A stretch of 64,000 nt of DNA from an uncultured Pseudomonadota bacterium (GTDB taxonomy: Bacteria > Pseudomonadota > Alphaproteobacteria > RF32 > CAG-239): contig CASFRM010000004.1 of NCBI GenBank assembly GCA_949297185.1, positions 8,866 through 72,865 on the forward strand, given 5' to 3'. A program made the translations under genes and the position numbers. A model generated the notes under the pieces. It worked only from the letters and a program-made list of their open reading frames with translations, did not search any database and was not told where the DNA came from. Below, one piece after another: positions 17,356 to 47,126 of the stretch (its first letter is position 1; each line of letters begins with the position of its first letter).

Positions 17356-17433
17356 TCTTTTAACGCCATTTATGATACAATATACAATAATTATTTAACA
17401 CAGTTATGACTTTCTTAACTAGTTATATATACA
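17308..17433 (-). ncRNA. Candidate ~125-nt small RNA or attenuated rpoB leader transcript
   Basis: Perfect extended -10 on the minus strand (TGATATAAT, plus-strand coordinates 17440-17448), about 85 nt upstream of the orphan terminator hairpin, which starts at 17355. No ORF lies between them. Support is sequence signals only. Confidence 0.25.
17403..17420 (+). promoter_or_regulatory. S-gene upstream motif, S1 copy (degenerate)
   Basis: GTTATGACTTTCTTAACT matches GTTATCTTTTTTTTAACT (the S3 copy) at 14 of 18 positions. It ends 66 nt upstream of the ATG at 17487. Confidence 0.35.
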
Positions 17434-17486
17434 AATACGATTATATCATTTAGAAATGTTAATCATCCAAAAAGGGATTTCATATC

Positions 17487-18230
17487 ATGATTGGACAATT
17501 TGTTAAAATAATTTACACAAAAGGTTTTATGCCTAAAGCTGTAGCGACTTTGTGCACCGCAGGTTTTCTTATGTATTCAATTCCCACATTTGCCGCTACG
17601 ACACCAGCATCGACCGAACCTGGTTGTGGCAAACTAGGATACAGTAACACTCTTGAGCCAGAGGATTGTCACAACAAATACTTCACTTGTCCGCTAAATT
17701 CCTCATATATAAAATGCGATGAAATGGCCGAAATTGGAGATATAAAATACTCAGAAAAGAGTTATGACCACGATGGATGGTACCTATGCAATGGACGACA
17801 AACCCGAAATGAAACGAGTTTACTTGTACCGATAGGGAGCAAGCTAAGTGCCATTCTTATTGAAAGAGGCTTCTCTGTTCCTCTCGTAATAAAACTCCCT
17901 GGCAGTTCTACCGGACAACAAACCGAGCAGGTTGCTGTACTCCCCAACTATCTTGGCACATTTCTCAGCGGATTCGGGACCTCCTCTTATAACAGTAAAG
18001 ACAGTAACACTAAAACTTCGCCTCTCCAAACAGGTAGAGTAGGAAGCCATACTCACTCCTTTCCCATCTACCAGTTTCAAGGATATGGCAAACACGAAGG
18101 AAACTGGGGAGGTTCAACTAATGTAACTCGTCTGGTTACTGGCCAACCAACAATCAGCAACAATAGCGGTACTGATACATGCCCGTTCCGTATAGGATTG
18201 TACCCATTTATTTATGCCGGAACCCAATAG
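17487..18230 (+). CDS. S1: secreted Cys-module plus phage-tail-collar-like domain protein, small form
   Basis: Signal peptide ...FLMYSIPTFAA. Cys module CGKLGY..C..YFTCPLNSSYIKCD, then GDIKYS..GWYLCNG..LPNYLGTFLSGFG..GSHTHSF..CPFRIGLYPFIYAG. This is the most divergent of the four S copies. An alternative start is M15 (17529). Confidence 0.8.
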   Translation: MIGQFVKIIYTKGFMPKAVATLCTAGFLMYSIPTFAATTPASTEPGCGKLGYSNTLEPEDCHNKYFTCPLNSSYIKCDEMAEIGDIKYSEKSYDHDGWYLCNGRQTRNETSLLVPIGSKLSAILIERGFSVPLVIKLPGSSTGQQTEQVAVLPNYLGTFLSGFGTSSYNSKDSNTKTSPLQTGRVGSHTHSFPIYQFQGYGKHEGNWGGSTNVTRLVTGQPTISNNSGTDTCPFRIGLYPFIYAGTQ

Positions 18231-18245
18231 ACAGGGAGAGCTACC

Positions 18246-19478
18246 ATGACACAATACAATATAGCACTTTTCAGTCTCATCTTTACTCTAACAATTCCTC
18301 TGCAATCGCAAGCATTGAGCTGTAAACAAACTCCGCCGCAATGTTCTAGTTACAACTACAAATACACATCCTGTCCCGGAGAATACGTCGCTTGCCCGTT
18401 CGACACCTCTCTCAAACAATGCGACAACGAAGCTTTGAGTAAAGACTTTAAATTTGCGATAAACAGCGGCGGAAATGGCTGGAACCAAGCCAACTCTTCC
18501 ACTCACTATCCCAATTACAGCGGAGCATTTATTGTTGGTGTGGCCTCATCCTCAAATTATTGTGGCACATCAGTAAATTCCTACGCCAATCCAACTGTCG
18601 GCAAACACTCCCATAAAAGCGAATCTAGCACCTATTATTGGCTAACTCTTGCTAATTTAAGCCGAGAAAAAGCTAGTGGCAGCGCATTTAAATCATTTTG
18701 TTCAGACACCTCCAATTTCAAACATACTGAAAACACAATCTCCACTACCGCCACTGGTACAAAAGCCACGACTTCAGAAACCAGACCCGGTAACTTTGCT
18801 GTCGATGGATATTTCTATTCGTATCCCTTCAACGAAAAAACAACTCAGGCAACAATTCCCTCCAGCAAACCGTCATGCACAACTCTAGGGTACAAGAACA
18901 AAGCCTCAGACTGCCCCGGTAGTTATATCACCTGTCCTTTTGACGATGCTGCGGTAATGTGCGATATGCAAGCCAAAGCCGGAGAAATAAAATTTTCATT
19001 AAAATTCGAAGGCACTTCCGGTGATCATAATGGATGGCTACTATGTGACGGAAGGAGGCTTGCCTCAATAGATGGCGGAAAATATGCGAATTCCGAATTA
19101 AAAACCATACTTAGCAACAATGGATTCGGAGCCAATCTTCCAAACTATCAAGGCGAGTTCCTTCGCATGAAGGGAACCAGCCCTTACAATACATCTTACA
19201 AATCAGCAACCAGCTATGCAACAAGACAATATGATGGAATTTCAGGACATACACACACCGTTAATTTTAACGTAAGTAAATTTGACGGAGATAGAACTTG
19301 CGGACAAAACGATGGTAATGACATGACAAAACCATATAGCGTCCCTACAGCCATCTCACCAGATAGAACAAGTGCAATAGGAGGCAGAACCGAACCTGAT
19401 GAAATCACGACCACTACTCGTCCACCCAATTTTGCGGCCTTTATATACATATACTCAGGGAAATTAGTCCAAAACTAA
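18246..19478 (+). CDS. L1: secreted two-unit Cys-module plus tail-collar-like protein, large form
   Basis: Signal peptide ..IPLQSQA|LSC. Unit 1: C..C..YKYTSCPGEYVACPFDTSLKQCD, DFKFA, KHSHK, ETRPGNFAVDGYFYSY. Unit 2: CTTLGY..DCPGSYITCPFDDAAVMCDMQAKAGEIKFS..GWLLCDG..LPNYQGEFLRMKG..GHTHT..RPPNFAAFIYIYSGKL. Lies 15 nt after S1 with a GGGAGAG RBS. Confidence 0.85.
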   Translation: MTQYNIALFSLIFTLTIPLQSQALSCKQTPPQCSSYNYKYTSCPGEYVACPFDTSLKQCDNEALSKDFKFAINSGGNGWNQANSSTHYPNYSGAFIVGVASSSNYCGTSVNSYANPTVGKHSHKSESSTYYWLTLANLSREKASGSAFKSFCSDTSNFKHTENTISTTATGTKATTSETRPGNFAVDGYFYSYPFNEKTTQATIPSSKPSCTTLGYKNKASDCPGSYITCPFDDAAVMCDMQAKAGEIKFSLKFEGTSGDHNGWLLCDGRRLASIDGGKYANSELKTILSNNGFGANLPNYQGEFLRMKGTSPYNTSYKSATSYATRQYDGISGHTHTVNFNVSKFDGDRTCGQNDGNDMTKPYSVPTAISPDRTSAIGGRTEPDEITTTTRPPNFAAFIYIYSGKLVQN

Positions 19479-19509
19479 TAAAAATATACAAAACAAAAAT
19501 ACAAGTTTT

Positions 19510-19529
19510 TTATTATTTTTTAATATATT
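19510..19529 (+). promoter_or_regulatory. S-gene upstream motif, S2 copy
   Basis: TTATTATTTTTTAATATATT compares with the S4 copy TTATCTTTTTTTTAATATATT on its coding strand. It ends 48 nt upstream of the S2 ATG. Confidence 0.35.
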
Positions 19530-19577
19530 CAGTATATAAAACAGATATTAAAACTAATTTTAAGCGGAGGCTCCTCC

Positions 19578-20267
19578 ATGATTGCATTCATAAAAAACAC
19601 AATTAACATCAAGAACACATTGTTTGTAATAAGTGCAATGTGCTCCATAATATTGTCTCTAAAAGAAACAAGTGCTGCCCAAGTACCGGCCTCCACTCCA
19701 CCTTCATGCGCTGATTTAAAATACACCACGAAAAAAACTGACTCATGGAAGTGTTATGATAAATATTTTAGTTGTCCGTTAGATCCGAATTACATCAAAT
19801 GCGACCGCATGGCCAAAGTCGGCGATATTAAATACACCAAATCAGCCACCGCCAACAAAGGCTGGCTACTGTGTGATGGCTCAACATACGATGCTACAAA
19901 ATACAGTGAATTAAAAAATTTAATCGGGCAAAAATTTGGAAACAGCGGATACAAACTCCCCAACTACATCGGCGTGTTTTTAAGAGGGGCTGGAAGCCAA
20001 CGAGTTGGTGGTACAACATACACAGCAAATTCAACATTCTATACTATCCAAGAAAGTGATGTAAAAGCACACAATCATTCCTACATAAGTCACTATTTCA
20101 ATGTTACCCGCGTAAAAGAAGGTGATGGTACATGGAACGGATCTTCAGATATTATAAAACCCTCTACAGGCAGAGCCAGAATGGATGCCAGTGGCAGTAA
20201 CGAGACCTGCCCTATGAGAGTGGGATTATATCCATACATCTATGCCGGTGAACCAGCTAAAAAATAA
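19578..20267 (+). CDS. S2: secreted Cys-module plus tail-collar-like protein, small form
   Basis: Signal peptide ..LKETSAA|Q. CADLKY..WKCYDKYFSCPLDPNYIKCD, then GDIKYT..GWLLCDGSTYDATKYSELKNLIGQKFG..YKLPNYIGVFLRGAG. HNH at 20070-20078. C-terminus CPMRVGLYPYIYAG. Confidence 0.85.
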   Translation: MIAFIKNTINIKNTLFVISAMCSIILSLKETSAAQVPASTPPSCADLKYTTKKTDSWKCYDKYFSCPLDPNYIKCDRMAKVGDIKYTKSATANKGWLLCDGSTYDATKYSELKNLIGQKFGNSGYKLPNYIGVFLRGAGSQRVGGTTYTANSTFYTIQESDVKAHNHSYISHYFNVTRVKEGDGTWNGSSDIIKPSTGRARMDASGSNETCPMRVGLYPYIYAGEPAKK

Positions 20268-20281
20268 AGAAGGAGATAGAA

Positions 20282-21499
20282 ATGAAAAAGATATATTTAA
20301 CATTTTTAGGTTTAGCTATACTTCTTCCTTGCCAAACCAAAGCAATAGATTGCGCCCCAAAGCCCAATACTACATGCACCTCCTATGGCTATATCCACAA
20401 CGGATGTCCCGGCAATTTTGTTTCTTGTCCCTTTGACACCAACTTTAAAACTTGTGATGAAGAAGCATATAAAGATGATTTCAAATTTGCCATAGGTAAT
20501 GTCAACAGTTTCTGGACAAAAGCTAATAACGCCTCAAACAGTGCCAATAACGACTACAGTGCACTGTTCATTGTTGGAGCACAAAAAAATAATTATTCAC
20601 TTACCAAATGTGCAACATATGTTAACACCATAAACACAACTAGCACATACAAAAGCCACACACATAACGGTGTAACTGTTGCAAAAGGATCCGCATATCT
20701 AGGAAAAAGAAGAAACGCCGGCGGCGGTGGATACAAAGCCTATTGCCAAAAAGAATATGATGGCAGTGTTTATGATAAACCATTATACACATCGACAACA
20801 GGAATTGGTGGTAATGACAGTGAGACTGCTCCTGTAAATTATGCGGTTGATGGTTATTTTTATACATACACACCTTTTGTGTGGAACGAAAAACAGGCAG
20901 CATTATCGCAGACCTTGCAAAAATGCTCATTTTTTGGCTACAATGACACCATATCCGATTGCCCCGGTGATTACGTTGTATGTCCATTTGATAAAACTGC
21001 AGTAATGTGTGATATGGAAGCTCAAGCCGGAGAAATAAAGTTTTCCTTACAGACCGATGATCATGACGGTTGGTTGCTCTGCAATGGTAGATCACTGGGC
21101 AACGCTTCATTAGCCAAATACAACAACTCAGAATTAGCAGATATTTTGCGCAGTGCAGGTTTTACTGGCACATTTAACTATGCTGTGCTTCCAAACTACC
21201 AAGGAATGTTTTTAAGACTAAAAGGCAAGTCAAGAAGCCTAGGTATTTACTCATCCTCGAACTACAAAACTGCACAACCGGATCGCCTTAAAACCCATAG
21301 CCACACATATTATGATGGAAACATTATAAAAAAACAGTGCGACCAAAATAAAGGAAAAGGAGGCGATTTTGAATATGTAAATTCACCAAATATGGCTGAA
21401 GGTGGTACAATATATTTTGAAACAACTGGCTCTGAATCGCGTCCGCCAAACTATTCAGCCAACATATTTATCTATACTGGCAAATTAAATGTAGATTAA
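20282..21499 (+). CDS. L2: secreted two-unit Cys-module plus tail-collar-like protein, large form
   Basis: Signal peptide ..LLPCQTKA|IDC. Unit 1: CPGNFVSCPFDTNFKTCD, DFKFA, SHTHN, ETAPVNYAVDGYFYTY. Unit 2: CSFFGY..DCPGDYVVCPFDKTAVMCDMEAQAGEIKFS..GWLLCNG..LPNYQGMFLRLKG..THSHT..RPPNYSANIFIYTGKL. Lies 14 nt after S2 with an AAGGAG RBS. Confidence 0.85.
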   Translation: MKKIYLTFLGLAILLPCQTKAIDCAPKPNTTCTSYGYIHNGCPGNFVSCPFDTNFKTCDEEAYKDDFKFAIGNVNSFWTKANNASNSANNDYSALFIVGAQKNNYSLTKCATYVNTINTTSTYKSHTHNGVTVAKGSAYLGKRRNAGGGGYKAYCQKEYDGSVYDKPLYTSTTGIGGNDSETAPVNYAVDGYFYTYTPFVWNEKQAALSQTLQKCSFFGYNDTISDCPGDYVVCPFDKTAVMCDMEAQAGEIKFSLQTDDHDGWLLCNGRSLGNASLAKYNNSELADILRSAGFTGTFNYAVLPNYQGMFLRLKGKSRSLGIYSSSNYKTAQPDRLKTHSHTYYDGNIIKKQCDQNKGKGGDFEYVNSPNMAEGGTIYFETTGSESRPPNYSANIFIYTGKLNVD

Positions 21500-21506
21500 T
21501 ATAAAA

Positions 21507-21541
21507 ATCCTCCTGAGAAACATCTCTCGGGGGGATTTTTT
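21507..21541 (+). terminator. Rho-independent terminator of the S2-L2 (or S1..L2) transcript
   Basis: 12-bp stem ATCCTCCTGAGA-aacatc-TCTCGGGGGGAT (two G-U pairs) followed by TTTTT. Confidence 0.75.
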
Positions 21542-21749
21542 ATCTATAAGCACCAATAACCGCTACACCATATTTAACTACTTTTCTAAGCTAAACTAAT
21601 TCAAATGGCACTACCTTTCTCAAACTTATAATCTCACCGCCAGACAATTATTTTTTTAATCATACTCCACAAATTTAATCCTATTTGATTGGCACCAGAA
21701 AACACCAAGACCGATAACCCAACTATGAATTGCTCACGACATCAACACA

Positions 21750-27613: not shown

Positions 27614-27721
27614 TTTGCCATCCCTCCGCAACTTGTTATGAGAGTGTCGATAAATATATTTTGCAATCTTTGAAATCTCCGTATATTATACATCATAAAA
27701 TTAAAAAAACATTTAATTTAT

Positions 27722-36767: not shown

Positions 36768-38192
36768 TCATTTTACATAAACCGTGTGCAGCATATTGGT
36801 CCTGCCCTTAACATTAAGCGGAAAACCGGCGGTAATTATGATATGATCGCCCGATTTAGTCAATCCGGCAGCCTTAGCATACTTAACCGCACATTCCTCA
36901 ACATTGGTAAACTTACGAAAACTTTCTTTATTAACCTTCGGCTTAACCCCCCATACTAAAGCCATTTGTCTTGCGACCTTAATATCGGGTGACAGCGCCA
37001 AAATTGGCAACGACGGACGCTCTCTGGCGGTTAAGAAAGTTGTAAAACCAGATGACGAATAACTAACTATTGCGCTCACATTTTTCAATACGCATGCCAA
37101 TTCCGAAGCCGCAAATGTTATAGCATCAGCCTCAGAAGCATTACAAGGAACTCTCCTTGAACCGTTCATTAATTCAAAGAACAAAGGATCCCCTTCTACT
37201 TCTTTAATGGTATTATGCATCATTTGCACGGCATTTACCGGATATTTTCCGGCAGCAGTTTCGGCCGAAAGCATAACCGCATCAGCTCCGTCATAAACCG
37301 CTGTTGCCACATCCGAAACCTCGGCTCTGGTAGGGGTTGGATTATTAATCATAGATTCGAGCATCTGGGTTGCAACAATAACCGGTTTTGCATGCAAGCG
37401 GCAAAGTTTAACAATCTTCTTTTGCAACACCGGAACGGTGGGCAACGGGCACTCAACGCCCAAATCCCCTCTGGCCACCATTATGCCGTCAGATTCCAAA
37501 ACAATATTTTCCAGATCTTCAATAGCACTGGGCTTTTCAAGCTTAGATATAATGCGAGCCTTACCGTCGACCAATTTTCTAAGTCTTCTGACATCATCGG
37601 CTTTTTGCACAAAAGACATACCGATCCAATCAACATCATTTTTCAATGCAAACTTGAGGTCTTCTTCGTCTTTTGGGGTAATTGCCGATATATTAAGCTT
37701 GGTATTAGGAAGATTAACCCCCTTATGACTTGATATGTATCCCCCGACCACGACGGTTGTTTCTGCCGAAGTTTTAGAACATTTATTAACTTTCAATACA
37801 ATATAACCGTCATTTACCAACAAGGTTTCACCGGCTTTTAACGCTTCAAAAATTTCCTTATGCGGCAAACAAACTCTGTTTTCATCACCCAAGGCCGGAT
37901 TCATATCCAAAACAAATTTCTGGCCCTCTTTCAACAAAACTTTATCTTGCTTAAAATTGCCCACACGAAGTTTTGGCCCTTGCAAATCTGCCAAAATAGA
38001 AATCAATCGTCCTTTTTCTTTTTCCAAAGAGCGAATAATCTTGATTCGTTCCTTATGTTCTTTGTAAGAACCATGACTGAAGTTAACTCTGAAAGCATCG
38101 ACACCTGCGTCAATCAATGCGGCGATCTGTTCTTTTGTAGCCGAAGAAGGACCGATGGTAGCTAAGATTTTGGTATGAGTATCTATTGGCAT
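36768..38192 (-). CDS. pyk: Pyruvate kinase
   Basis: TKILATIGPSS, FRVNFSHG, IMVARGDLGVE, ATQMLESM. Start at MPIDTHTK is preferred over the upstream ATG at 38240. Confidence 0.95.
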   Translation of the reverse strand: MPIDTHTKILATIGPSSATKEQIAALIDAGVDAFRVNFSHGSYKEHKERIKIIRSLEKEKGRLISILADLQGPKLRVGNFKQDKVLLKEGQKFVLDMNPALGDENRVCLPHKEIFEALKAGETLLVNDGYIVLKVNKCSKTSAETTVVVGGYISSHKGVNLPNTKLNISAITPKDEEDLKFALKNDVDWIGMSFVQKADDVRRLRKLVDGKARIISKLEKPSAIEDLENIVLESDGIMVARGDLGVECPLPTVPVLQKKIVKLCRLHAKPVIVATQMLESMINNPTPTRAEVSDVATAVYDGADAVMLSAETAAGKYPVNAVQMMHNTIKEVEGDPLFFELMNGSRRVPCNASEADAITFAASELACVLKNVSAIVSYSSSGFTTFLTARERPSLPILALSPDIKVARQMALVWGVKPKVNKESFRKFTNVEECAVKYAKAAGLTKSGDHIIITAGFPLNVKGRTNMLHTVYVK

Positions 38193-38331
38193 ATTTATCA
38201 TCCTTATAAAAAACAACTTTGGTAAAGAATATAACTTCAATAAGTTAATAAGGTGTTATTTTTATACTTGTAAATAACAATTTAATTTGCTAATTTCTAG
38301 CAAAATATAAATTTATAACAGGAGAAAGACG

Positions 38332-38589
38332 ATGAGTGAAGAGGAGAAAACAGAGGTAGGCGGCATCGCAGCAGACCGCCTGCGTTCATTAATCGAACGC
38401 ATAGAAAGACTTGAAGAAGAAAAGAAAGCAATTTCTTCTGATATCCGTGATATTTTTGCCGAAGCCAAATCAGCAGGATTCGATGTTAAGATAATGCGTG
38501 CGGTAATAAAATTACGCAAGATGAATGCCGCCGACCGCGACGAACAAGAATTTTTGCTTGATACATACAAAAAAGCCTTGGATATATAG
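38332..38589 (+). CDS. gapR: GapR (DUF2312/UPF0335) nucleoid-associated protein
   Basis: LRSLIERIERLEEEKKAISSDIRDIFAEAKSAGFDVKIMRAVIKLRKM closely resembles Caulobacter GapR as I remember it (LKSIIDRVERLEVEK...VYAEAKGNGFDVKVLKKVV). Confidence 0.9.
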   Translation: MSEEEKTEVGGIAADRLRSLIERIERLEEEKKAISSDIRDIFAEAKSAGFDVKIMRAVIKLRKMNAADRDEQEFLLDTYKKALDI

Positions 38590-38605
38590 GATATATAAAT
38601 AACAC

Positions 38606-38641
38606 AAAAAAAATCCCACAGCAAAAACTGTGGGATTTTTT
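38606..38641. terminator. Bidirectional terminator shared by gapR (+) and L3 (-)
   Basis: ATCCCACAG-caaaaa-CTGTGGGAT (38613-38636) is flanked by A8 on the left and T6 on the right. Confidence 0.8.
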
Positions 38642-38648
38642 GCGCCCG

Positions 38649-39851
38649 CTAATCCTTCAAATTTAGTTTTCCTGAATAAATAAACATATAAGCTGCCATG
38701 TTTTTAGGCCTTAATTCATCTCCAACCGAGGTACCTGTAGCAGAAGATGTAGTACCTTCAGCAGAAGATGTCGTAATACTGTTCAAACAAAAAGATGAAT
38801 TTCCACCAGAGTATGTAAAACTAGAACTTCCCGTGCCGCAAGATTTCACTGAATTTGCCGGATACTGTGACGTTAACGAATGCTTGTGATCCGGAACCAC
38901 AGAACCTGAAACACTTAAAGTATCTCCCGTAGTTATCTTAAGAAATAATGCTTGTCCATTAGGAATGCTCGTTTTACTTTTATTTTTTAGGATTTTACCC
39001 AATTCAGAATTTTCATATCCACTGCCCGACAAAGCGCGTCCGTTACAGAGCACCCAACCATTGTGATCAACAGGTACCGATGCAAATTTTATTTCACCAG
39101 CTTTTGCCTCCATATCACACATAACCATATTTTCATTAAATGGACATCTTACAAATTCGCCCGGACAATTTTGCTCCTTATCTTTATATCCTAAACTATC
39201 ACAAGTTGGAGTAACACTTGGGGTACTGGCTTGTCCAGAGGTTTTAGTTGAAGTTACATAATTATAAATGCACCCCTTTACTGTCATACTTGCTAAACTA
39301 CCATCACCGGTACCTAAACTGGACGTAGACACAGACAACGCACTTTCACTAGCATTGACACACGGATAAACAGAACTTCCATAATTTGCGGGTGAAAGAT
39401 TATCCCACAAAAGCGCCGTAAACGGTCCCACTTCAACATCTCCACTATGAGAATGTTCAAGAACACCCGTTGCATCCTTAACCACCTTTGCTACATTTAT
39501 TCCTACACCGCATTTTCCACTTGCTTTATCTGCACTAATTTTTGCTATTCCAACAACATATGAATTATTTGCATCTTTATCGCCTCCGGTAGTGCCATAC
39601 CCTTGTACCTCACTCCAACCAGTTCCCTCACAGTTATCAACCGCAAATTTGAAATCACCTTTACTGCCTTCCTTATCACATTGTAAAAAAGTCTTATCAA
39701 ACGGACATGCAGTAAAATTGCCCGGGCATCCGGAATATATATATCCAAAATCCTTACACGAAACTTTAGGCATATCACCACATTCCAGCGCCGATGATTG
39801 CCACGGAAGAAGAACTGCCACACCTACAACCAATAAATATTTTTTCATCAT
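38649..39851 (-). CDS. L3: secreted two-unit Cys-module plus tail-collar-like protein, large form
   Basis: Signal peptide ..LLPWQSSA|LEC. Unit 1: CPGNFTACPFDKTFLQCD, DFKFA, EHSHS. Unit 2: CDSLGY..NCPGEFVRCPFNENMVMCDMEAKAGEIKFA..GWVLCNG..DHKHS..RPKNMAAYMFIYSGKL. Lies 15 nt after S3 with a GGAGG RBS. Confidence 0.85.
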   Translation of the reverse strand: MMKKYLLVVGVAVLLPWQSSALECGDMPKVSCKDFGYIYSGCPGNFTACPFDKTFLQCDKEGSKGDFKFAVDNCEGTGWSEVQGYGTTGGDKDANNSYVVGIAKISADKASGKCGVGINVAKVVKDATGVLEHSHSGDVEVGPFTALLWDNLSPANYGSSVYPCVNASESALSVSTSSLGTGDGSLASMTVKGCIYNYVTSTKTSGQASTPSVTPTCDSLGYKDKEQNCPGEFVRCPFNENMVMCDMEAKAGEIKFASVPVDHNGWVLCNGRALSGSGYENSELGKILKNKSKTSIPNGQALFLKITTGDTLSVSGSVVPDHKHSLTSQYPANSVKSCGTGSSSFTYSGGNSSFCLNSITTSSAEGTTSSATGTSVGDELRPKNMAAYMFIYSGKLNLKD

Positions 39852-39866
39852 TTTCTCCTCCTTGTT

Positions 39867-40766
39867 TTACTTTTTAGCCGGAGTTCCGGCGTAAATATAA
39901 GGATACAAACCTATTCTATACGGACAATAATCTGACGCTGAGCCGTCAACAGCACCAACCTTATATGTAGTTCTCGCTGTTGTTGATTTTACACCACTAG
40001 TATACCAGCTACCACCTCCTGGTGTATAACTAAAAGTTGAACACTTATATGTTTTAAGTCCAACTTTGTGAGTATGTGCAGGTATAGCCTGCTCTTGAAT
40101 ATTGGTTAATGCAGCTGATCTATATGTAACACTCCCGATTTTTTGCTCACCAAAACCTCGCAAAAACACTCCGATTAAATTAGGAACATGACACTCATCG
40201 CCTGTATTCCGTCCCCTATAACAGGTAGCTAAAGAAGCCTCTTTTAACTCTGGATATTTTTCATGATCAAATATGCTCCCATCACACAATAACCATCCCT
40301 TTTCAGCACTTCCAGAAGTGCTATATTTTATATCCCCGGCTCTTGCAACACGATCGCATTTAATATAATTTGCATCAAAAGGACAAGTAAAGTACATATC
40401 ATAACATTTCCAAGAATTTTCTTTAGTCATATTATAGCCCAAATCACTGCAGCTAATATCCGCTATTTCTGTATTAGTACCCGTGACTTGTGTACTTGTC
40501 TGACCATTAAAATTGCCCAATTCCAAATCTACATCAACCACCCGCTCAAAGTCTCCTCCGGTTGAACCGGTTCCTATCCCCGTTCCAACAGTCCACTTAC
40601 CATCATCTTTTCCCCAATCTGCATCACCTAATTCCGTACTTGGTCTGTTTATGTCCTCACCGATATTAGAAATTGCATATGCCTCATCGGCCACGATTGT
40701 TTTTCCTAAAAAACAAACCCAGCCCAGCAAGATAACATTTATTATACCTTTCGAATATCTGAGCAT
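39867..40766 (-). CDS. S3: secreted Cys-module plus tail-collar-like protein, small form with an extra N-terminal G/T/D-rich segment
   Basis: Signal peptide ..TIVADEAYA. About 70 extra residues (GDADWGKDDGKWTVGTGIGTGSTGG...), then CSDLGYNMTKENSWKCYDMYFTCPFDANYIKCD, GDIKYS..GWLLCDG..VPNLIGVFLRGFG..AHTHK..CPYRIGLYPYIYAG. Confidence 0.85.
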   Translation of the reverse strand: MLRYSKGIINVILLGWVCFLGKTIVADEAYAISNIGEDINRPSTELGDADWGKDDGKWTVGTGIGTGSTGGDFERVVDVDLELGNFNGQTSTQVTGTNTEIADISCSDLGYNMTKENSWKCYDMYFTCPFDANYIKCDRVARAGDIKYSTSGSAEKGWLLCDGSIFDHEKYPELKEASLATCYRGRNTGDECHVPNLIGVFLRGFGEQKIGSVTYRSAALTNIQEQAIPAHTHKVGLKTYKCSTFSYTPGGGSWYTSGVKSTTARTTYKVGAVDGSASDYCPYRIGLYPYIYAGTPAKK

Positions 40767-40827
40767 AATAAAATCTCCTTATTTAGTGAAATTCAAAACC
40801 TTATACTAACACTCTAAAATAAATTAG

Positions 40828-40843
40828 TTAAAAAAAAGATAAC
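40828..40843 (-). promoter_or_regulatory. S-gene upstream motif, S3 copy
   Basis: Coding-strand GTTATCTTTTTTTTAA lies 61 nt upstream of the S3 ATG and is identical over 16 nt to the S4 copy. Confidence 0.4.
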
Positions 40844-40935
40844 TAAAGATTCTTCCGCGCCCAAAGCCTTTCCATACTAATATCATACTACTTTTTCGAT
40901 ATTTTTTATGTTACACTTTTATTAATTTACATAAC

Positions 40936-40974
40936 GACAAAGGCAGAAAGTCTTTCCGAATTTCTGCCTTTGTC
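40936..40974 (-). terminator. Strong hairpin after L4 (putative terminator between the two pairs of locus B)
   Basis: Perfect 14-bp inverted repeat GACAAAGGCAGAAA-(11 nt)-TTTCTGCCTTTGTC, starting 7 nt after the L4 stop. No clear U-tract follows on the minus strand. Confidence 0.5.
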
Positions 40975-40980
40975 ATATTT

Positions 40981-42129
40981 TTACAGTTTACCCGAGTAAA
41001 TATATATATAAGCCGAATAGTTTGGTGGACGAGTTTCTGTACCTGCATAAGCCGTTTCTTGCGAACCAGATGATGAAAGAGCCGTAGAAGTAACAGGATT
41101 ATAATAATTCTTCGAAGAACCATTATTTTGATTACAAGAACTTGTTGGCTGTCTTCCTACCACCTGAACACTATGACTGTGAGGAGCCAAATCATCAGAC
41201 TGCACAGCCGTATATGATGAAGCCGATGCATAAGAAAAATAACTACCCTTCATTCGCAAAAACATCGCAGAATAGTCCGGAAGATTGCTACCAAAGCCGT
41301 TATTACTTAATATTGTTTTCAACTCAGAATTTGCATATTTTCCGCTTAATATTGAAGACAAACTTCTGCCATCGCATTTTAACCAGCCATTATGATCAGA
41401 AGATTTAAGCGAAAACTTAATCTCTCCGGCTTTAGCTTCCATATCACACATTACTGCCGTGGTATCAAAAGGACATTTAACATACCCGCCCGGACAATCT
41501 GCAACTTTATCAACATATCCCATAGTGGCACAAGACGGCTTGGTTGATGGTAACGATTTTTGAAGTGTAGTTTTTATGGAATCCGTATAACTATAAAAAT
41601 ACCCATCAACAGCCTGATTTACCGGCCTTGTTTCCGCACTGCCGGCACTGGTCGATGTAACACCTTTACTATAAGTCATTACCCCGCAAAATCCGGAGTA
41701 ACGCGCGTTAGATGCGTTATTTCTCGAAAGAACAAAAGCACTTGCGCCAAAAACTGATGAAGCCCCATGAGTATGAGACTGCATTACCGGAGTTTTACTG
41801 GCATTGACAGTAGAAGAACATCTTATCGTACTTGATGAAGCCCCAACAATAAACGCCCCGCTATAATTTTTCGATGCCGAAGAAGTGTTGGCTTTGCTCC
41901 ACCCTGTTCCACCATTATTCAAAGAAAACTTAAAATCATTATTAAAAGCTTCTCTGTCACATTGCCTAAACGAAGTATCAAAAGGACAGGCCATATATCC
42001 TCCCGGACAAGAAGCATATTTGTACCCATAATACACACAATTAGGGACATCCTTAGAGCAAGTCAACGCCATCACCTGAAGCGGAAACAAAACCAAATAA
42101 GATAAAACCATCAATCCTTGTTTTTTCAT
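40981..42129 (-). CDS. L4: secreted two-unit Cys-module plus tail-collar-like protein, large form
   Basis: Signal peptide ..LFPLQVMA|LTC. Unit 1: CPGGYMACPFDTSFRQCD, DFKFS, SHTHG, ETRPVNQAVDGYFYSY. Unit 2: CATMGY..DCPGGYVKCPFDTTAVMCDMEAKAGEIKFS..GWLKCDG..LPDYSAMFLRMKG..PHSHS..RPPNYSAYIYIYSGKL. Lies 11 nt after S4 with a GGAGGGG RBS. Confidence 0.85.
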   Translation of the reverse strand: MKKQGLMVLSYLVLFPLQVMALTCSKDVPNCVYYGYKYASCPGGYMACPFDTSFRQCDREAFNNDFKFSLNNGGTGWSKANTSSASKNYSGAFIVGASSSTIRCSSTVNASKTPVMQSHTHGASSVFGASAFVLSRNNASNARYSGFCGVMTYSKGVTSTSAGSAETRPVNQAVDGYFYSYTDSIKTTLQKSLPSTKPSCATMGYVDKVADCPGGYVKCPFDTTAVMCDMEAKAGEIKFSLKSSDHNGWLKCDGRSLSSILSGKYANSELKTILSNNGFGSNLPDYSAMFLRMKGSYFSYASASSYTAVQSDDLAPHSHSVQVVGRQPTSSCNQNNGSSKNYYNPVTSTALSSSGSQETAYAGTETRPPNYSAYIYIYSGKL

Positions 42130-42140
42130 GTTATCCCCTC

Positions 42141-42833
42141 CTAATTGTTTGTTGCAGGCTGCCCGGCATAGATAAATGCGTTTAACCCTATTCTATAAGG
42201 ACAAGTATAATCACCCGAACCAGACGCTGACACGATCGGAACAAACGAGGTTGCAACTGCAACAGATGAATTACCGGAATATCTACCTTCTTGCTTAGTT
42301 GTATAGCTATACGTGTACTTTGTAAAGCTATGATTATGATATTTACAACTAGAGGATTGCAACTGGTTTATTCCTAGAGCGCTATAAGTTGTAGTAATCG
42401 AACCAGATGTAATTTTTTTAGAACCGAAACCTCTCAAAATAATTCCTCTATAATCCGGCAACTTAGGTGCAGATGAAGTTCCTCCGAATTTTGTTGAAAT
42501 GACCGAATAAAGCTCCGGATATTTTGACGGGCTATAAGTCGTACCATCACACAGCAACCATCCAAGACTCTCGGTAGATGACTTTGAATATTTGATATCC
42601 CCGACTTCTGCATACTTATCACACCTGATATAATTAGCATCCAAAGGGCAAATAAAATATTTATCATAACACTTCCACGAATTTGCCTTGGTTAAATTAT
42701 AGCCCAAATCACTGCAGCTTGGTTTTGTCGGTGCAGCACATACAGACGAAAACGGATAAACACTAATCAACAGCAGCACACACGCTATGCAACACCTAAA
42801 AAAAGCATCTTTCTGACTAACCATCTTCTTCAT
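42141..42833 (-). CDS. S4: secreted Cys-module plus tail-collar-like protein, small form
   Basis: Signal peptide ..YPFSSVCA|AP. CSDLGYNLTKANSWKCYDKYFICPLDANYIRCD, GDIKYS..GWLLCDGTTYSPSKYPELYSVISTKFGG..PKLPDYRGIILRGFG..YHNHS..CPYRIGLNAFIYAG. Confidence 0.85.
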   Translation of the reverse strand: MKKMVSQKDAFFRCCIACVLLLISVYPFSSVCAAPTKPSCSDLGYNLTKANSWKCYDKYFICPLDANYIRCDKYAEVGDIKYSKSSTESLGWLLCDGTTYSPSKYPELYSVISTKFGGTSSAPKLPDYRGIILRGFGSKKITSGSITTTYSALGINQLQSSSCKYHNHSFTKYTYSYTTKQEGRYSGNSSVAVATSFVPIVSASGSGDYTCPYRIGLNAFIYAGQPATNN

Positions 42834-42895
42834 AACAACATCTCCGTTTTTTAACCCATAATCATAACAACAACTTTTTCATAAACTAAAATATA

Positions 42896-42911
42896 TTAAA
42901 AAAAAGATAAC
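42896..42911 (-). promoter_or_regulatory. S-gene upstream motif, S4 copy
   Basis: Coding-strand GTTATCTTTTTTTTAA followed by TATATT lies 62 nt upstream of the S4 ATG. Confidence 0.4.
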
Positions 42912-42974
42912 CTACGCCCCATTTATCGTTTTACCACACCTAAGCACTATTAACAAGATTTTTATTTATAGCAA

Positions 42975-43011
42975 CAACCAAAAAGCCACCTACTCTTTAT
43001 AGGTGGCTTTT
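42975..43011 (-). terminator. grpE rho-independent terminator
   Basis: AAAAGCCACCT-(9 nt)-AGGTGGCTTTT. On the minus strand the stem is followed by TTTTTGGTT. Confidence 0.75.
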
Positions 43012-43022
43012 CAGCGGATTAA

Positions 43023-43574
43023 CTAATTCTTTGTCACAACAACCATTGCTTCTCTTAATATTCTATCGTGAATCATATATCCGGTTTGCACTTCTGCAAT
43101 AATAGTACCTGCCGGTTTAGATTTATCCTCAACTTCTTGTATTACCTGATGAAAATTAGGATCAAACACCGTTCCCATAATATCCATTTTATGAATATCA
43201 AACTTATTGAACACCTTGGTCAAATCATTTTGTGTGAGTTTCACGCCTTCCAACAGACCTTTGCACGCATCATCACCGTTTGAAGCATCTATTGCCCTTT
43301 GCAGATTATCGGCAACTGCCAACAAATCCTTAGCGAAAGATGATATTGCATATTTATTATTTTTTTCAATTTCTTGCTGACATCTTTTTTTAGTATTTTC
43401 AAGCTCGGCATAAGCCCGCAAATAGTCTTCCTTGAGCTTTTGATTTTCGGCATTCAAAGCATCAACATCAACTTTTTCATCTGCGGATTCCACATCTTCA
43501 GACACTTCTTGTGGATTCCCTTCTTCATTCATTTCCAAATTTTCTTCATCTAAATTTTTCTTATTTTTAGTCAT
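43023..43574 (-). CDS. grpE: Nucleotide exchange factor GrpE
   Basis: Acidic N-terminus, coiled coil (LKEDYLRAYAELENTKKR), and C-terminal beta domain (FDPNFHQVI...GYMIHDRILREAMVVV). Confidence 0.95.
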   Translation of the reverse strand: MTKNKKNLDEENLEMNEEGNPQEVSEDVESADEKVDVDALNAENQKLKEDYLRAYAELENTKKRCQQEIEKNNKYAISSFAKDLLAVADNLQRAIDASNGDDACKGLLEGVKLTQNDLTKVFNKFDIHKMDIMGTVFDPNFHQVIQEVEDKSKPAGTIIAEVQTGYMIHDRILREAMVVVTKN

Positions 43575-43625
43575 TTTTCACTTAAGCCCGTTAACAAATA
43601 TTTATACATTCCTCAATATACTAAA

Positions 43626-43671
43626 TATTTAGTGAGTAATACTTGACAAGTCAAGAGCTATGCTTATTAAT
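43626..43671. promoter_or_regulatory. Divergent promoter pair sharing a palindrome that supplies both -35 boxes
   Basis: Palindrome CTTGACAAGTCAAG (43642-43655). Plus strand: TTGACA (43643-43648), then ATTAAT/TTAATA 17-18 nt downstream. Minus strand: TTGACT (43649-43654), 17-nt spacer, TAAATA (43626-43631), facing grpE. Confidence 0.45.
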
Positions 43672-43714
43672 AATAACACAATTAAGCTTTTTTGAGTACG
43701 AAAGACATTTAGAG

Positions 43715-45742
43715 ATGGGCAAAACAAGAATAAACACTGATATTTTACAAAGCACGACATTTTTGCCATCAAAATTCAATAAAAAGAAATTCATCATTAC
43801 CTACACGATTCCTTCAAATCCCTATGCTTTGGAATTACAAAATACCGGAAAGCTACAGTGCTACGGCAGACATCCCTGGCCCCACATTGACAAGATAAAC
43901 GGGTGGATGCTGTCAGCCGAAACCGCCACCTTTATGAAAGCCGGAGGCTTAGGAATGATTGCCTCCGAATTGCCCGAAGCATTTAACCGCCGTTTCCAAG
44001 AACAAGGCGACAGGATAGCCGTTGTAACCCCAATGTATATTGGCGATACCGGTAAGAAAAAAGCATATCTCAAAGATGGTGTATACGAAGGAGCCGAACA
44101 CAAAAGCATCGCTGTAACAAAAATTACCGAATATATAGTTCCGTTTATGAACGAAAAGGAAGAATTTGTAGAATACAAAGTAGATGTATACACCGGAATT
44201 TGCGAACACACTCCCTATGTATTTTTATACAACGAGCACTTTTTCGGCATAGACCCGCACCCCAAAAACCCAACCGCCCAAGACGGGTGCTACATTATGA
44301 ATAAGCATGGTGTCAATGAAGTTGAACGCTTTGCTTTCTTTTCCAAAGCCGTTTTCCTATTAATAAGAGCAGCAATTAAAGACAACAAATCACCAAATGT
44401 CATTATTGCCAATGACTGGCACTCCGGAGCTATCTCCGGCCTAACCAAATACCTGCCGATGGCTCTGCTCAATTCTAAGCAAATAAGCGAAGACGAAGCC
44501 GACAAAATCCGCTCGATTCCCATCATTCACATTGCCCATCACCTGGGATATCAAGGTTGGGACTATGACAATACGGCACGGATTCTAAATTCTTTATATG
44601 AAGAACACACGGCCTTTGTTTTCAAAAATGCCAAGCCGGTCAAAAATTCAAATTCCCGCACCACCAATACGCTGATTGTACACGATTGCTACAATCAGGC
44701 CTCGTGCAATTTCCATTTGGCCGACCGTGTTATTACCGTTTCTAAAAATTACCTTGAAGAAGTATCAAAAGAACTAGGCTTCGGTCATGACTTCCGCGAT
44801 ATCTTAAAAATCCGCAAGGACCATCGCACATTTTTTGGTATTGTAAACGGCTATGATAAAAATCTTATCTCACCCAATGCTCAAAAAATCTCCGATATTA
44901 ATAAATTTTTTGGCGACACTTCGTTCAAAACCTTTGATGAAAATTCTTTGGAATTAAAGAAACATAACAAGGAAGAATTTATCAAACTGATATCTAAACT
45001 TGCCGCCGACAAAGAATACAAAGATAAAATCATACCTTTGATTGAAACCTACAAGTTTGAAGATATCAGTCACAATATCAAAGACGCCGGCAAAGTTCCC
45101 GTTGTCTGTGCTACCTCACGTTTGGTAGAACAAAAGGGATATGATATCGCGGCTCAATCGATTATTGAATGCATGCGCCAACACACATTAAAAGGCCTCG
45201 AAAAGCCTATATTTGTCTTGGGCGGTGCCGGAGATATCGAGCTTTTTGCCATGCTAAAGCGACTCAAAGACAAAGCCGCCAAAATTGACAAAGAAGCCGC
45301 CAAACGAATTTATGTTTTCCGTGGCTACAAAGACCAATTTGCCTATGCCATTCAATTATCGGCCGACTTTTATCTTATGCCCAGCCGTTTTGAACCATGC
45401 GGGTTAACCCAGATGGAAGCCTTTGCCAAAGGCTCTCTTCCGGTTGCCATGTCCACCGGCGGCTTGGTTGACACCATAGAAGATAAGGTTGATGGATTCC
45501 GCACCGAAGTATTTTTCAGCGACAACCGCCACGTCTATGGCAACAACATTACCGCACGCCGCGTCAAAACCAACGAAAACGCCTATACCGAAACTCTTGA
45601 TAAAGCTCTCGGCACTTTCTACGAAAACCCAGAACTTATTTTTGATATGCAGAAAAAAGCCATGCAAAAAGACTTTAGCTGGGATGTTAAGGACGGTTCA
45701 CTGGAAAAATATAGTAATCTGCTAAGATACGGACATCTGTAA
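43715..45742 (+). CDS. Glycogen/starch-synthase-like GT5 glycosyltransferase, unusually long (~675 aa)
   Basis: FMKAGGLGMIASELPEAF (KxGGL motif), ANDWHSG, and C-terminal LMPSRFEPCGLTQMEAFAKGSLPVAMSTGGLVDTIED. ATG at 43715 is preferred; the ORF-track TTG at 43643 coincides with the -35 box. Confidence 0.75.
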   Translation: MGKTRINTDILQSTTFLPSKFNKKKFIITYTIPSNPYALELQNTGKLQCYGRHPWPHIDKINGWMLSAETATFMKAGGLGMIASELPEAFNRRFQEQGDRIAVVTPMYIGDTGKKKAYLKDGVYEGAEHKSIAVTKITEYIVPFMNEKEEFVEYKVDVYTGICEHTPYVFLYNEHFFGIDPHPKNPTAQDGCYIMNKHGVNEVERFAFFSKAVFLLIRAAIKDNKSPNVIIANDWHSGAISGLTKYLPMALLNSKQISEDEADKIRSIPIIHIAHHLGYQGWDYDNTARILNSLYEEHTAFVFKNAKPVKNSNSRTTNTLIVHDCYNQASCNFHLADRVITVSKNYLEEVSKELGFGHDFRDILKIRKDHRTFFGIVNGYDKNLISPNAQKISDINKFFGDTSFKTFDENSLELKKHNKEEFIKLISKLAADKEYKDKIIPLIETYKFEDISHNIKDAGKVPVVCATSRLVEQKGYDIAAQSIIECMRQHTLKGLEKPIFVLGGAGDIELFAMLKRLKDKAAKIDKEAAKRIYVFRGYKDQFAYAIQLSADFYLMPSRFEPCGLTQMEAFAKGSLPVAMSTGGLVDTIEDKVDGFRTEVFFSDNRHVYGNNITARRVKTNENAYTETLDKALGTFYENPELIFDMQKKAMQKDFSWDVKDGSLEKYSNLLRYGHL

Positions 45743-45834
45743 AACTACTGTTTATTGCCGCAGATTCTTGTTGCGAAAACAGGGATAATTCCTTACAATC
45801 ACTTTCATGTTAAGTATAATGTAAGGACAATAAA

Positions 45835-46545
45835 ATGCGTGCATCAAATCGTCAAAACAATCAACTTCGTAATATAGAATTTATCACCAACTTTAATCCC
45901 TATGCCGAAGGCTCTTGCTTGGTTAAATACGGCAACACTCATGTTATCTGCACGGCCTCGGTTGATGAAAAGGTTCCCTCTTGGCTCAAAGGGCAAGAAA
46001 AAGGCTGGATTACCGCCGAATATGCCATGCTCCCAAGGTCGACCCAAACCCGCGTCCAAAGAGAAAGCAAAAAGCCCTCCGGCCGCACCCAAGAGATTCA
46101 AAGACTTATCGGACGTTCATTGCGTTCTGTAGTTGACTTAAGCAAAATGCAAGAAATCTGCATAACTATTGATTGCGATGTTATTCAGGCCGACGGCGGC
46201 ACCAGAGTTGCCTCAATTTCCGGCGGCTTTATCGCCCTATACATAGCAATTCAAAAGCTATTGCAAGAAGGCAAAATTTCCGAAAATCCCATCAGAGAAT
46301 TTGTTGCCGCGGTTTCCTGTGATATTTATGAAGGCGAAACAATTATTGATGTAGACTACAATGAAGATTCCAACTCTCAAGTAGATATGAATTTTATTAT
46401 GACCGAAAGCGGTAAGATTGTCGAAATTCAAGGCACTGCCGAGGGCGAACCATTCAGCGAAGAAGAATTTAATCAACTTTTGCAAATGGGCAAACAAGGT
46501 ATCAAAGAAATCATTGCCAAACAAAAGGAAGCACTGTCATGTTAA
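45835..46545 (+). CDS. rph: Ribonuclease PH
   Basis: MRASNRQNNQLRNIEF..., YAEGSCLVKYGNTHVIC, DCDVIQADGGTRVASISG. Confidence 0.95.
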   Translation: MRASNRQNNQLRNIEFITNFNPYAEGSCLVKYGNTHVICTASVDEKVPSWLKGQEKGWITAEYAMLPRSTQTRVQRESKKPSGRTQEIQRLIGRSLRSVVDLSKMQEICITIDCDVIQADGGTRVASISGGFIALYIAIQKLLQEGKISENPIREFVAAVSCDIYEGETIIDVDYNEDSNSQVDMNFIMTESGKIVEIQGTAEGEPFSEEEFNQLLQMGKQGIKEIIAKQKEALSC

Positions 46546-47126
46546 AAGAATTGGTAATTGCCTCACATAATCAGGGCAAAATTAACGAGTTCAAGCAAAT
46601 GCTCGAACCTTTGGGTGTAAAGATTTATTCGGCATCAGAACTTAACCTGCCCGATGTTGAAGAAACCGGCACTACTTTTCACGAAAATGCCGCACTTAAA
46701 GCCGAAGCATTATCAAAAATATCCGGCAAACCTTGCTTAGCTGACGATTCAGGTCTTTGTGTTGATGCTTTGGGCGGTCGCCCCGGAGTTTATTCCGCCC
46801 GCTATGCCCCCAACCGCGATTTTGACAAAGCCATGACCATGCTCATAAACGAGCTCAAAGATAGCGGCTCTGATGATTGGTCGGCACATTTTTCTTGCGT
46901 ACTTGCCCTAAAAGAACCGGATAAACCGACCAGATTCTACGAAGGCAAAGTAGAAGGTATTATAACTGCCGACCGTAGAGGTTCCAACGGTTTTGGCTTT
47001 GACCCTGTTTTCATCCCGCAAGGTTATGAAAGAACCTTTGCCGAAATGAGCTCGGAAGAAAAACGAAATCTTTCCCACCGTGGCAAAGCCGTTGCCGCCT
47101 TTTTACAAAAGGAATTTAATGCCTAA
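46539..47126 (+). CDS. rdgB: dITP/XTP pyrophosphatase (RdgB/HAM1)
   Basis: LVIASHNQGKINEF, DDSGLCVDALGGRPGVYSARY, GFGFDPVF, SHRGKA. Confidence 0.9.
   Translation: MLKELVIASHNQGKINEFKQMLEPLGVKIYSASELNLPDVEETGTTFHENAALKAEALSKISGKPCLADDSGLCVDALGGRPGVYSARYAPNRDFDKAMTMLINELKDSGSDDWSAHFSCVLALKEPDKPTRFYEGKVEGIITADRRGSNGFGFDPVFIPQGYERTFAEMSSEEKRNLSHRGKAVAAFLQKEFNA

Follow-up and report, generated by a model that had tools for sequence, protein, structure and literature searches.

Proteins built on the tail collar domain of phage fibres are also encoded by cells, and we know of no established role for these cellular relatives. Here we describe one family of them, encoded in a 64,000-nucleotide stretch of DNA (the window) from an uncultured alphaproteobacterium of the CAG-239 lineage (contig CASFRM010000004.1, positions 8,866 to 72,865 of the forward strand). 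The genes form pairs in which a small gene (S) is followed by a large one (L), and they lie in two loci, A and B. Among the closest described proteins is the short tail fibre gp12 of phage T4 (1OCY), with which S and L share the N-terminal part of the collar, a His-x-His (HxH) motif, a head inserted after it, and a C-terminal strand (ETRPxN...) running back to the collar. Unlike gp12, S and L have no fibre shaft, baseplate attachment, or phage context; instead, they carry a predicted Sec signal peptide and a cap with four cysteines (Cys). In addition, the Arg-Pro of the C-terminal strand becomes Cys-Pro-x-Arg in S, and L stacks two units in one chain.

Other systems resemble parts of this organisation. 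Proteins named MdpB or 'microcystin-dependent protein' (COG4675), a label that the Joint Genome Institute (JGI) uses for many matches to the S/L unit profile, are also chromosomal collar proteins and are widespread in bacteria. Those listed are without the Cys module, and for these proteins we came across no account of paired S/L cassettes or strain-level replacement in the literature. The fibre genes of phages Mu, P1, and P2 (S/U, H/G) undergo the same block exchange, in which a constant N-terminal part is followed by a variable C-terminal part and a downstream gene. In contrast to these phages, the S/L exchange proceeds by allelic recombination between strains rather than by an invertase, and inverted repeats are missing; L is a paralogous two-unit binder and not a Tfa chaperone, and S and L are cellular proteins predicted to be exported. 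Polymorphic toxin/immunity systems differ in that the partner in S/L is a larger exported paralogue and the variable region is a gp12-type head.

Two cases of cellular reuse are also relevant. The mosaic adhesive trimer (MAT) fibres of Bdellovibrio bacteriovorus are chromosomally encoded, phage-fibre-like proteins with signal peptides, multiple paralogues, and diverse tips, and one of them was shown to bind prey surface glycans (PMC10769870). They are long, trimeric beta-helix/prism fibres with a conserved, beta-rich N-terminal domain of ~130 residues, many with S74 chaperone-protease domains, and the paper mentions no collar domain (PMC10769870). The logic of a chromosomal, signal peptide-bearing, phage-fibre-like repertoire of paralogues is shared with S/L; however, S and L are short, Cys-capped, and encoded as gene pairs, mature S being about 190 residues long, without a shaft, and with a Cys module of ~30 residues at its N-terminus. 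In the second case, a tail collar domain is fused to a PilV shufflon protein; the product is a pilus tip adhesin that is diversified by programmed inversion and has been proposed to set recipient specificity in conjugation (PMC9881135). This is another reuse of the tail collar domain in a variable locus, whereas the S/L loci have no pilus genes, inversion repeats, or PilV domain.

Comparison of the window with its relatives establishes a family of cellular, Cys-capped proteins of the gp12 receptor-binding type, exported according to a heuristic prediction, which are encoded as S->L cassettes in polymorphic islands, the S head being inherited together with L as a single block. We put at roughly 0.55 the probability that these are domesticated phage receptor-binding domains acting as exported, polymorphic, strain-specific S+L pairs for surface recognition, a figure that covers the observed and the inferred parts of this explanation jointly. 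Phage fibres, Mu-type fibre/Tfa pairs, toxin/immunity pairs, MAT fibres, and known defence systems each have at least one defining feature that was tested and is lacking in S/L, which is therefore none of them. The preliminary description of this DNA, made from its letters alone, knew of no described system with Cys-capped S/L pairs. We found no named family for this organisation, and the open-access papers searched describe neither the Cys cap nor the S/L pairing. The two-unit structure of L, the second locus, and above all the strain-level replacement of cassettes are new beyond that description.

Organisation of the S and L genes

Locus A lies between rpoB (12870-17045, -) and rplQ, the gene for L17 (21807-22316, -; identified from the Pfam call on the syntenic gene of a related contig). 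Four alternating small and large open reading frames (ORFs) on the + strand had been predicted at this position, and their placement, coordinates, and lengths proved exact. The 15-nt S1-L1 spacer (ACAGGGAGAGCTACC) contains GGGAGAG and the 14-nt S2-L2 spacer (AGAAGGAGATAGAA) contains AAGGAG, both of them purine runs resembling a Shine-Dalgarno (SD) sequence, again as described. The features of this locus are as follows.

17362 to 21746 (no strand), hypervariable island A between rpoB and rplQ; from DNA comparison with the related contigs L001 and L006
17487 to 18230 (+), S1, 247 residues: predicted signal peptide, four-Cys module (17625-17720), collar with an enlarged insert, HxH, variable head, CPxR C-terminal strand; no Pfam match alone, aligns with the S family
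18246 to 19478 (+), L1, 410 residues: predicted signal peptide, N-terminal Cys module (18342-18425) with a degenerate collar/HxH unit, C-terminal Cys module (18876-18965) with a full collar/HxH/head unit; Pfam Collar, 14.4 bits, residues 262-305
19578 to 20267 (+), S2, 229 residues: predicted signal peptide, Cys module (19707-19805), collar, HxH (H165/H167), head, CPxR C-terminal strand; Pfam Collar, PHROGs, AlphaFold2 (AF2) model, Foldseek match to 1OCY
20282 to 21499 (+), L2, 405 residues: two-unit L protein with Cys modules at 20375-20458 and 20924-21013; ORF, alignment, and module regular expression
21503 to 21541 (+), terminator-like hairpin and T-run 3' of L2; read by eye, not in the consensus terminator scan list, in a stretch conserved in L001 and L006

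A search of the window by tblastn with the four locus A proteins revealed locus B (38649-42833, - strand), which contributes two further S->L pairs. It is flanked by grpE on one side and by a GapR-like gene followed by pyruvate kinase on the other, and a glycosyltransferase gene is also among its neighbours. The 11- and 15-nt spacers carry SD motifs, and terminator-like hairpins lie 3' of L3 and L4.

42141 to 42833 (-), S3, 230 residues, Cys module at 42618-42716; precomputed PF07484 match of the identical protein P0004
40981 to 42129 (-), L3, 382 residues, 11-nt spacer from S3, Cys modules at 41956-42039 and 41443-41532; tblastn and module regular expression
39867 to 40766 (-), S4 (P0007), 299 residues: predicted signal peptide, Gly/Thr-rich linker of ~75 residues, Cys module (40353-40451), then collar/HxH/head; tblastn and module regular expression
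38649 to 39851 (-), L4, 400 residues, 15-nt spacer from S4, Cys modules at 39675-39758 and 39114-39203; tblastn and module regular expression
38589 to 40322 (-), swapped cassette: receptor-binding half of S4 (codon 149 on), all of L4, and the L4 terminator; from DNA comparison with the sister strain L011

In every pair seen, L follows S. This holds for the four pairs of the window, where the spacers are 11-15 nt long and all have SD motifs, and for the pairs of related contigs (two in L001/L004, one in L003, one in L005, two in L006, two in L011, one in L015/L016, and one in L017).

An exact 15-mer, TTATCTTTTTTTTAA, is found at 42896-42910 and 40828-40842 (-), ~60-75 nt upstream of S3 and S4, and a T-rich tract at 19503-19521 (+), upstream of S2, resembles it. 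It was rejected as a shared promoter motif, since counts at up to two mismatches are at chance level (31/100 shuffles).

The common element of these proteins is a module of ~30 residues with the consensus xPSCxxLGYx(5-8)CPGxYxxCPFDx(5)CD. A regular expression for the module has 12 matches in the six-frame translation of the window, all 12 of which fall inside the eight S/L genes; the four proteins for which the module had originally been noted are thus included. There is one module per S and two per L in all 23 family proteins examined. S consists of a single Cys-module + collar unit and L of two such units in tandem. The N-terminal unit of L reads DFKF..GW..FIVG..HxH..RPxN and is missing the helix that elsewhere separates GW from FxxG. 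Its homology to the unit formed by S and by the C-terminal half of L is clear (hhalign probability 99.3%, E 1.8e-20), although it matches no Pfam family itself. The preliminary description had assigned one unit to each L, which is not borne out; nor does its consensus fit every unit, as the degenerate N-terminal unit lacks the GWLLCDG...LPNYxGxFLR segment.

The HxH motif is invariant in S (H165/H167) and in the C-terminal unit of L (H335/H337); in the N-terminal unit of L, H121 is invariant and H123 is at least 90% conserved. Mean pairwise identity is 0.52-0.61 in the Cys module, 0.52-0.55 in the collar, 0.13-0.15 in the head after HxH, and 0.65 in the C-terminal strand. A conserved module, collar, and strand surrounding a hypervariable head is the pattern predicted by a gp12-like collar/head layout.

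By itself, the module has no recognisable relatives. A module-only profile finds no significant match in the PDB (best E 0.16, to eosinophil cationic protein) and none in Pfam, and no NCBIfam, PHROG, or PADLOC family covers it. We infer that two disulfides per module would form after export. Five Cys are invariant in S proteins: the four of the module and a fifth within the C-terminal CPxR motif, which replaces the RPxN of L and of gp12. The fifth (e.g., C211 of S2, at about 20208-20210 of the window) makes the number of conserved Cys odd. P0008 and P0009 do not conserve the collar Cys of GWLLCDG, which therefore cannot be its regular partner; an inter-chain bond or a role as metal ligand is possible.

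Export was assessed by a heuristic that combines hydrophobicity, charge, and small-x-small sites. All eight S/L N-termini have a hydrophobic 12-residue stretch within the first 30 residues (mean Kyte-Doolittle 1.9-3.1) and small-x-small sites at residues 21-36, and seven of the eight have a positively charged n-region. The Sec-type signal peptides of the preliminary description are therefore recovered, with 8/8 proteins Sec-like by this heuristic. Lipoprotein anchoring was considered and rejected, as no lipobox precedes any N-terminal Cys in the eight proteins. The host is a diderm, with TolB, Mla, and AsmA.

Relationship to the tail collar domain and T4 gp12

The S/L receptor-binding units belong to the Collar/gp12 family by sequence, profile, and fold, as had been proposed from recognition of the motif. 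S2 scores 43.6 bits against Pfam Collar PF07484 (cut-off 24), and its match in PHROGs is phrog_523, tail collar fibre, at 2.2e-14. Precomputed PF07484 matches exist for S3 (P0004), S4 (P0007), and six of seven other S homologues (P0002, P0003, P0005, P0008, P0009, and the next-tier P0010), with none for P0006. S1, L1, and L2 were assigned through the family alignments A1-A3 and hhalign.

The profile of alignment A3, which comprises 17 units (S proteins and C-terminal units of L), matches the gp12 receptor-binding domain 1OCY with an E-value of 2.6e-6, profile positions 34-188 aligning with chain residues 10-193/198. The family HxH falls on H116-K-H118 of the 1OCY chain, and the C-terminal strand on ETRPWN. 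We take H116 and H118 to be the zinc ligands His445 and His447 of gp12, which, according to the 2003 structure paper, are reportedly contributed by all three chains.

The structural comparison is in agreement with the profile searches. An AF2 monomer model of S2, built from a 56-sequence alignment, has a predicted local distance difference test score (pLDDT) of 88-95 over residues 41-150, which make up the Cys module and collar. Its top Foldseek matches in the PDB are 1OCY, gp12 in 5IV5, and 1PDI, with E-values from 5.5e-5 (1OCY, the best) to 2.7e-4, probability 1.00, and template modelling (TM) scores of 0.39-0.47; it also matches 68 viral tail-collar models in BFVD at E<=1e-3.

Exchange of cassettes between near-identical strains

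The preliminary description regarded the family as chromosomally fixed, and this is true of the slot but not of its contents, which are hypervariable and exchanged between near-identical strains. The rplQ-rpoB slot carries S->L pairs in every related genome recovered, including lineages in which RpoB is 94.6-95.8% identical. The order rplQ-[S->L]-rpoB-rpoC is conserved across the clade, and the pair is co-directional with rplQ and rpoB in L015-L017; relative to these, the island of the window is inverted. In L001, the island has one S->L pair in each direction together with an IS110-family transposase (13175-14134) beside the inverted pair; there is no transposase in the rpoB-rplQ island of the window.

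Between the window and its sister metagenome-assembled genomes (MAGs), RpoB is 98.5-98.9%, RpoC 99%, RplQ 97%, and GalU 97% identical, whereas the best S/L matches in the same MAGs are only 42-49% identical. The DNA is 94.8% identical to L001 and 92.9% to L006 up to position 17361, and matches resume at 21747/21754. Inside 17362..21746, there are only short patches of 65-94% identity to these contigs, mostly over Cys modules and collar cores.

Locus B provides a view of a single exchange. Over 48000..40323, the DNA is 98.1% identical to that of the sister strain L011, a stretch that spans grpE, S3, L3, and codons 1-148 of S4, which encode the predicted signal peptide, the linker, the Cys module, and GDIKY. 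Similarity to L011 is absent over 40322..38589, which comprises the remainder of S4, the whole of L4, and the terminator, and identity returns to 100% over 38588..37756. The receptor-binding half of S4 and the entire L4 were thus replaced together, with the conserved module/collar DNA as the 5' recombination anchor of this swap. The earlier proposal that S and L act as a unit is supported by this joint replacement and by the invariable adjacency of the two genes. At the 3' edge of the cassette, an 85-residue ORF (38332-38589, +) matches a sister-strain gene called GapR_DNA-bd (PF10073), and the stop codon of this GapR-like ORF coincides with the edge itself.

A block exchange of this kind has a precedent in phages, since in the fibres of Mu and P2 the variable C-terminus and the assembly protein are exchanged together, the helper being specific for the tip. 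Gp12-type knitted trimers also need chaperones, as T4 gp12 needs gp57A. One explanation would therefore be that one partner of the S/L pair binds and the other is its matched assembly or attachment factor; the constant N-terminal part of S, its variable C-terminal part, and the whole downstream gene, swapped as one block, would fit this model. However, L is not of the Tfa type: it matches only Collar and no Tfa family in Pfam, NCBIfam, or PHROGs, and it has two gp12-type units, an invariant HxH, a hypervariable head, and its own predicted signal peptide. Nor is there an invertase or inverted repeats. We consider a fibre with a cognate helper unlikely. Programmed inversion of the shufflon kind was likewise rejected, since no inverted repeat exceeds 21 nt or 79% complementarity and the loci neither contain nor adjoin a recombinase gene.

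The ages of the variants can be judged from their synonymous divergence (dS). In the genes that flank locus B, dS between the window and the L011 strain is 0-0.04, and one gene of 700 codons is without any difference. S3, L3, and the N-terminal part of S4 have a dS of 0.15-0.23 with a nonsynonymous-to-synonymous ratio (dN/dS) of 0.10-0.24, and their amino-acid changes cluster in the head regions. By these comparisons, the S/L variants are old allelic lineages that are kept and moved by recombination, and not recent bursts of mutation.

Strain-level replacement of cassettes with old alleles is typical of bacteriocin and polymorphic-toxin loci, and the gp12-type domain binds lipopolysaccharide (LPS) in T4. 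S and L might thus be lectin-like bacteriocins released by the cell, or targeting subunits, with the LPS of competing strains as their ligand, in which case the polymorphism would stem from warfare between strains. The observations that count against such antagonism are that no toxin, lysis, or immunity-like domain was found with Pfam, NCBIfam, PHROGs, or PADLOC, that the variable part is a binding head rather than an enzymatic C-terminus, and that both genes encode exported paralogues, unlike toxin/immunity pairs. Antagonism, too, is unlikely to be the explanation.

A different kind of conflict, with phages, has also been considered. If exported receptor-binding domains taken from the cell's own phages occupied or mimicked the phage receptor, an arms race could diversify them; the homology of S and L to phage receptor-binding tips, the hypervariability of the islands, and the position of the genes outside any prophage are compatible with such decoys. 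The dN/dS of 0.1-0.24, by contrast, gives no sign of a burst of positive selection at the depth sampled, and none of the eight S/L proteins matches a PADLOC-DB v2 family at E<=0.01, on which basis a known defence system was also rejected. We know of no precedent for such a decoy, and regard it as improbable.

Cellular origin, distribution, and proposed function

The S/L genes are cellular and chromosomal, not viral. The neighbours of locus A are rpoB, rplQ, galU, and asmA, and within the window no phage structural, lysis, integrase, transposase, or secretion gene adjoins either locus, so that what had been reported for locus A holds for both. No family member was found in the 2.9 million viral contigs of IMG/VR, nor in two scans of the JGI metagenomes. 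A plasmid origin was rejected, since tblastn with L1 found no match in PLSDB. In the phage collection, 375 records were matched; a phage with a Cys-capped collar was sought among them and rejected, the best-covering match (Haematospirillum phage-plasmid CP014526) being an ordinary fibre without the module.

These results bear on the idea that S and L are decaying fibre genes of a prophage, tailocin, or injection system and have no present function. Tail collar domains are indeed mostly phage proteins, as the 375 phage records and 68 BFVD structures illustrate. Nevertheless, none of the eight ORFs is disrupted, and their signal peptides, SD sites, and terminators are conserved; dN/dS is 0.1-0.24; lineages whose RpoB is 94.6-98.9% identical all have the slot occupied; and there is no other phage gene nearby and none of the family in viral contigs. 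Gene context, undisrupted reading frames, purifying selection, and the lack of viral members led us to reject a remnant of this kind, which we hold to be highly improbable; among the alternatives, it is the only one that the evidence contradicts.

Searches by word index over 5.8 billion clusters yielded 8 close S relatives beyond S2 (P0002-P0009, including S3 and S4) and 12 L relatives beyond L1, all without a name. In species-representative genomes, the family occurs only in MAGs of uncultured Alphaproteobacteria or of an uncultured proteobacterium. When the unit profile was run exhaustively with HMMER over 1.84 billion representatives, it returned 17,199 collar-type proteins at E<=1e-3, 61 of them at E<=1e-30, which shows how common tail-collar domains are in bacterial chromosomes. 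The best 150 matches include 17 already known family members and a further 68 proteins that fit a relaxed module expression, typically behind a signal peptide. These 68 imply that the Cys-capped collar family is real, wider than the clade, and unnamed.

A second tier of relatives (P0027-P0043) has the cap and the collar without HxH. In four second-tier loci, with five gene pairs, the collar gene follows one whose exported product contains 31-35 Cys and matches no Pfam family. The partners with coordinates, all 268-323 residues long, with an N-terminal KVYWLPDYL and a repeated DYGCxKYWxDCxxKCE, are the following.

L007, 6138 to 7109 and 14525 to 15496, two Cys-rich partners, each directly upstream of an HxH-less Cys-capped collar gene
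L008, 3731 to 4537, Cys-rich partner directly upstream of an HxH-less Cys-capped collar gene
L009, 3011 to 3847, Cys-rich partner directly upstream of an HxH-less Cys-capped collar gene

A DsbD gene lies immediately downstream in the L008 locus. In the family proper, the L-type proteins P0019, P0026, and L003 10693-12453 have C-terminal extensions of 135-198 residues, with 20 Cys in each of the first two and 8 in the third; these extensions match no Pfam family either. Kinship of these extensions with the second-tier partners was not relied on, because the BLAST matches are weak and composition-biased (E 6e-8 to 1e-6, obtained against a very small database and with composition correction disabled).

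The explanation that we favour, namely strain-specific surface recognition by S+L pairs, can be set out as a series of steps. S and L would be exported by Sec, whereupon disulfides would form in the Cys modules. By analogy with gp12, trimers stabilised by a metal at HxH might then assemble, and their variable heads may recognise a polysaccharide, for instance LPS or a glycan of the host. Each S would join its cognate L in a single matched complex outside the cytoplasm, such as a short shaft-less fibre or a lectin pair. This complex would set the surface specificity of the strain, either in adhesion to a host or partner surface or in the recognition of other cells. Old S/L alleles are exchanged by homologous recombination anchored in the conserved Cys-module/collar DNA.

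Several observations weigh against this explanation. Firstly, no route across the outer membrane is encoded near the S/L loci, so the proteins could stay in the periplasm. Secondly, physical linkage alone could explain the joint movement of S and L. Thirdly, the second tier without HxH implies that the metal site is not essential to the wider family. Fourthly, S1 (no match), L1 (14.4 bits), and L2 (14.0 bits) are individually under the Pfam Collar cut-off. Finally, the head of the S2 model is of low confidence (pLDDT about 50-68), as is expected for a domain interwoven in a trimer, and the L1 model is poor (mean pLDDT 56; fold match E 0.027), which leaves the homology of the N-terminal unit of L resting on hhalign. 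The AF2 models are of monomers; the trimer, the metal, and the ligand are proposed by homology, and the disulfides and the S:L contact are likewise putative.

A bolder version is possible but doubtful. In it, S+L would be a self-contained, strain-specific device made from domesticated phage tips, whose matched heads sit in one extracellular complex and whose specificity (kin or partner recognition, competitor targeting, or masking of a phage receptor) is reprogrammed by the swap of a 1.7-kb cassette between genomes that are identical elsewhere. The Cys module would be a new disulfide-stapled cap that replaces both the fibre shaft and the chaperone of the phage, and lets a knitted gp12-type trimer assemble outside the cytoplasm.

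The S/L family offers a concrete, testable case for cellular collar proteins, as the natural cassette swaps show which parts must match. If it is a recognition device, cells would have turned the receptor-binding tips of phages into extracellular lectins without a shaft. In the four-Cys cap there would then be a new module for folding or anchoring, one that might serve in the engineering of receptor-binding proteins, and this uncultured alphaproteobacterial lineage would gain a marker for strain typing and ecology.

Some further features of the window deserve mention. It contains no rRNA, tRNA, or Rfam match within its 64 kb. Two ORFs, at 930-1772 (+, 280 residues) and 1820-3070 (-, 416 residues), have no Pfam match at E<=1e-5 and lie beside a two-component system. 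The gene order is unusual, with rpoBC not preceded by rplJL and rplQ detached from rpoA. The AsmA-like protein of 1375 residues (23504-27631, -) diverges much faster than its neighbours: its identity is 83-85% where that of RpoB, RpoC, RplQ, and GalU is 97-99%, and 51-54% where that of RpoB is about 95%.

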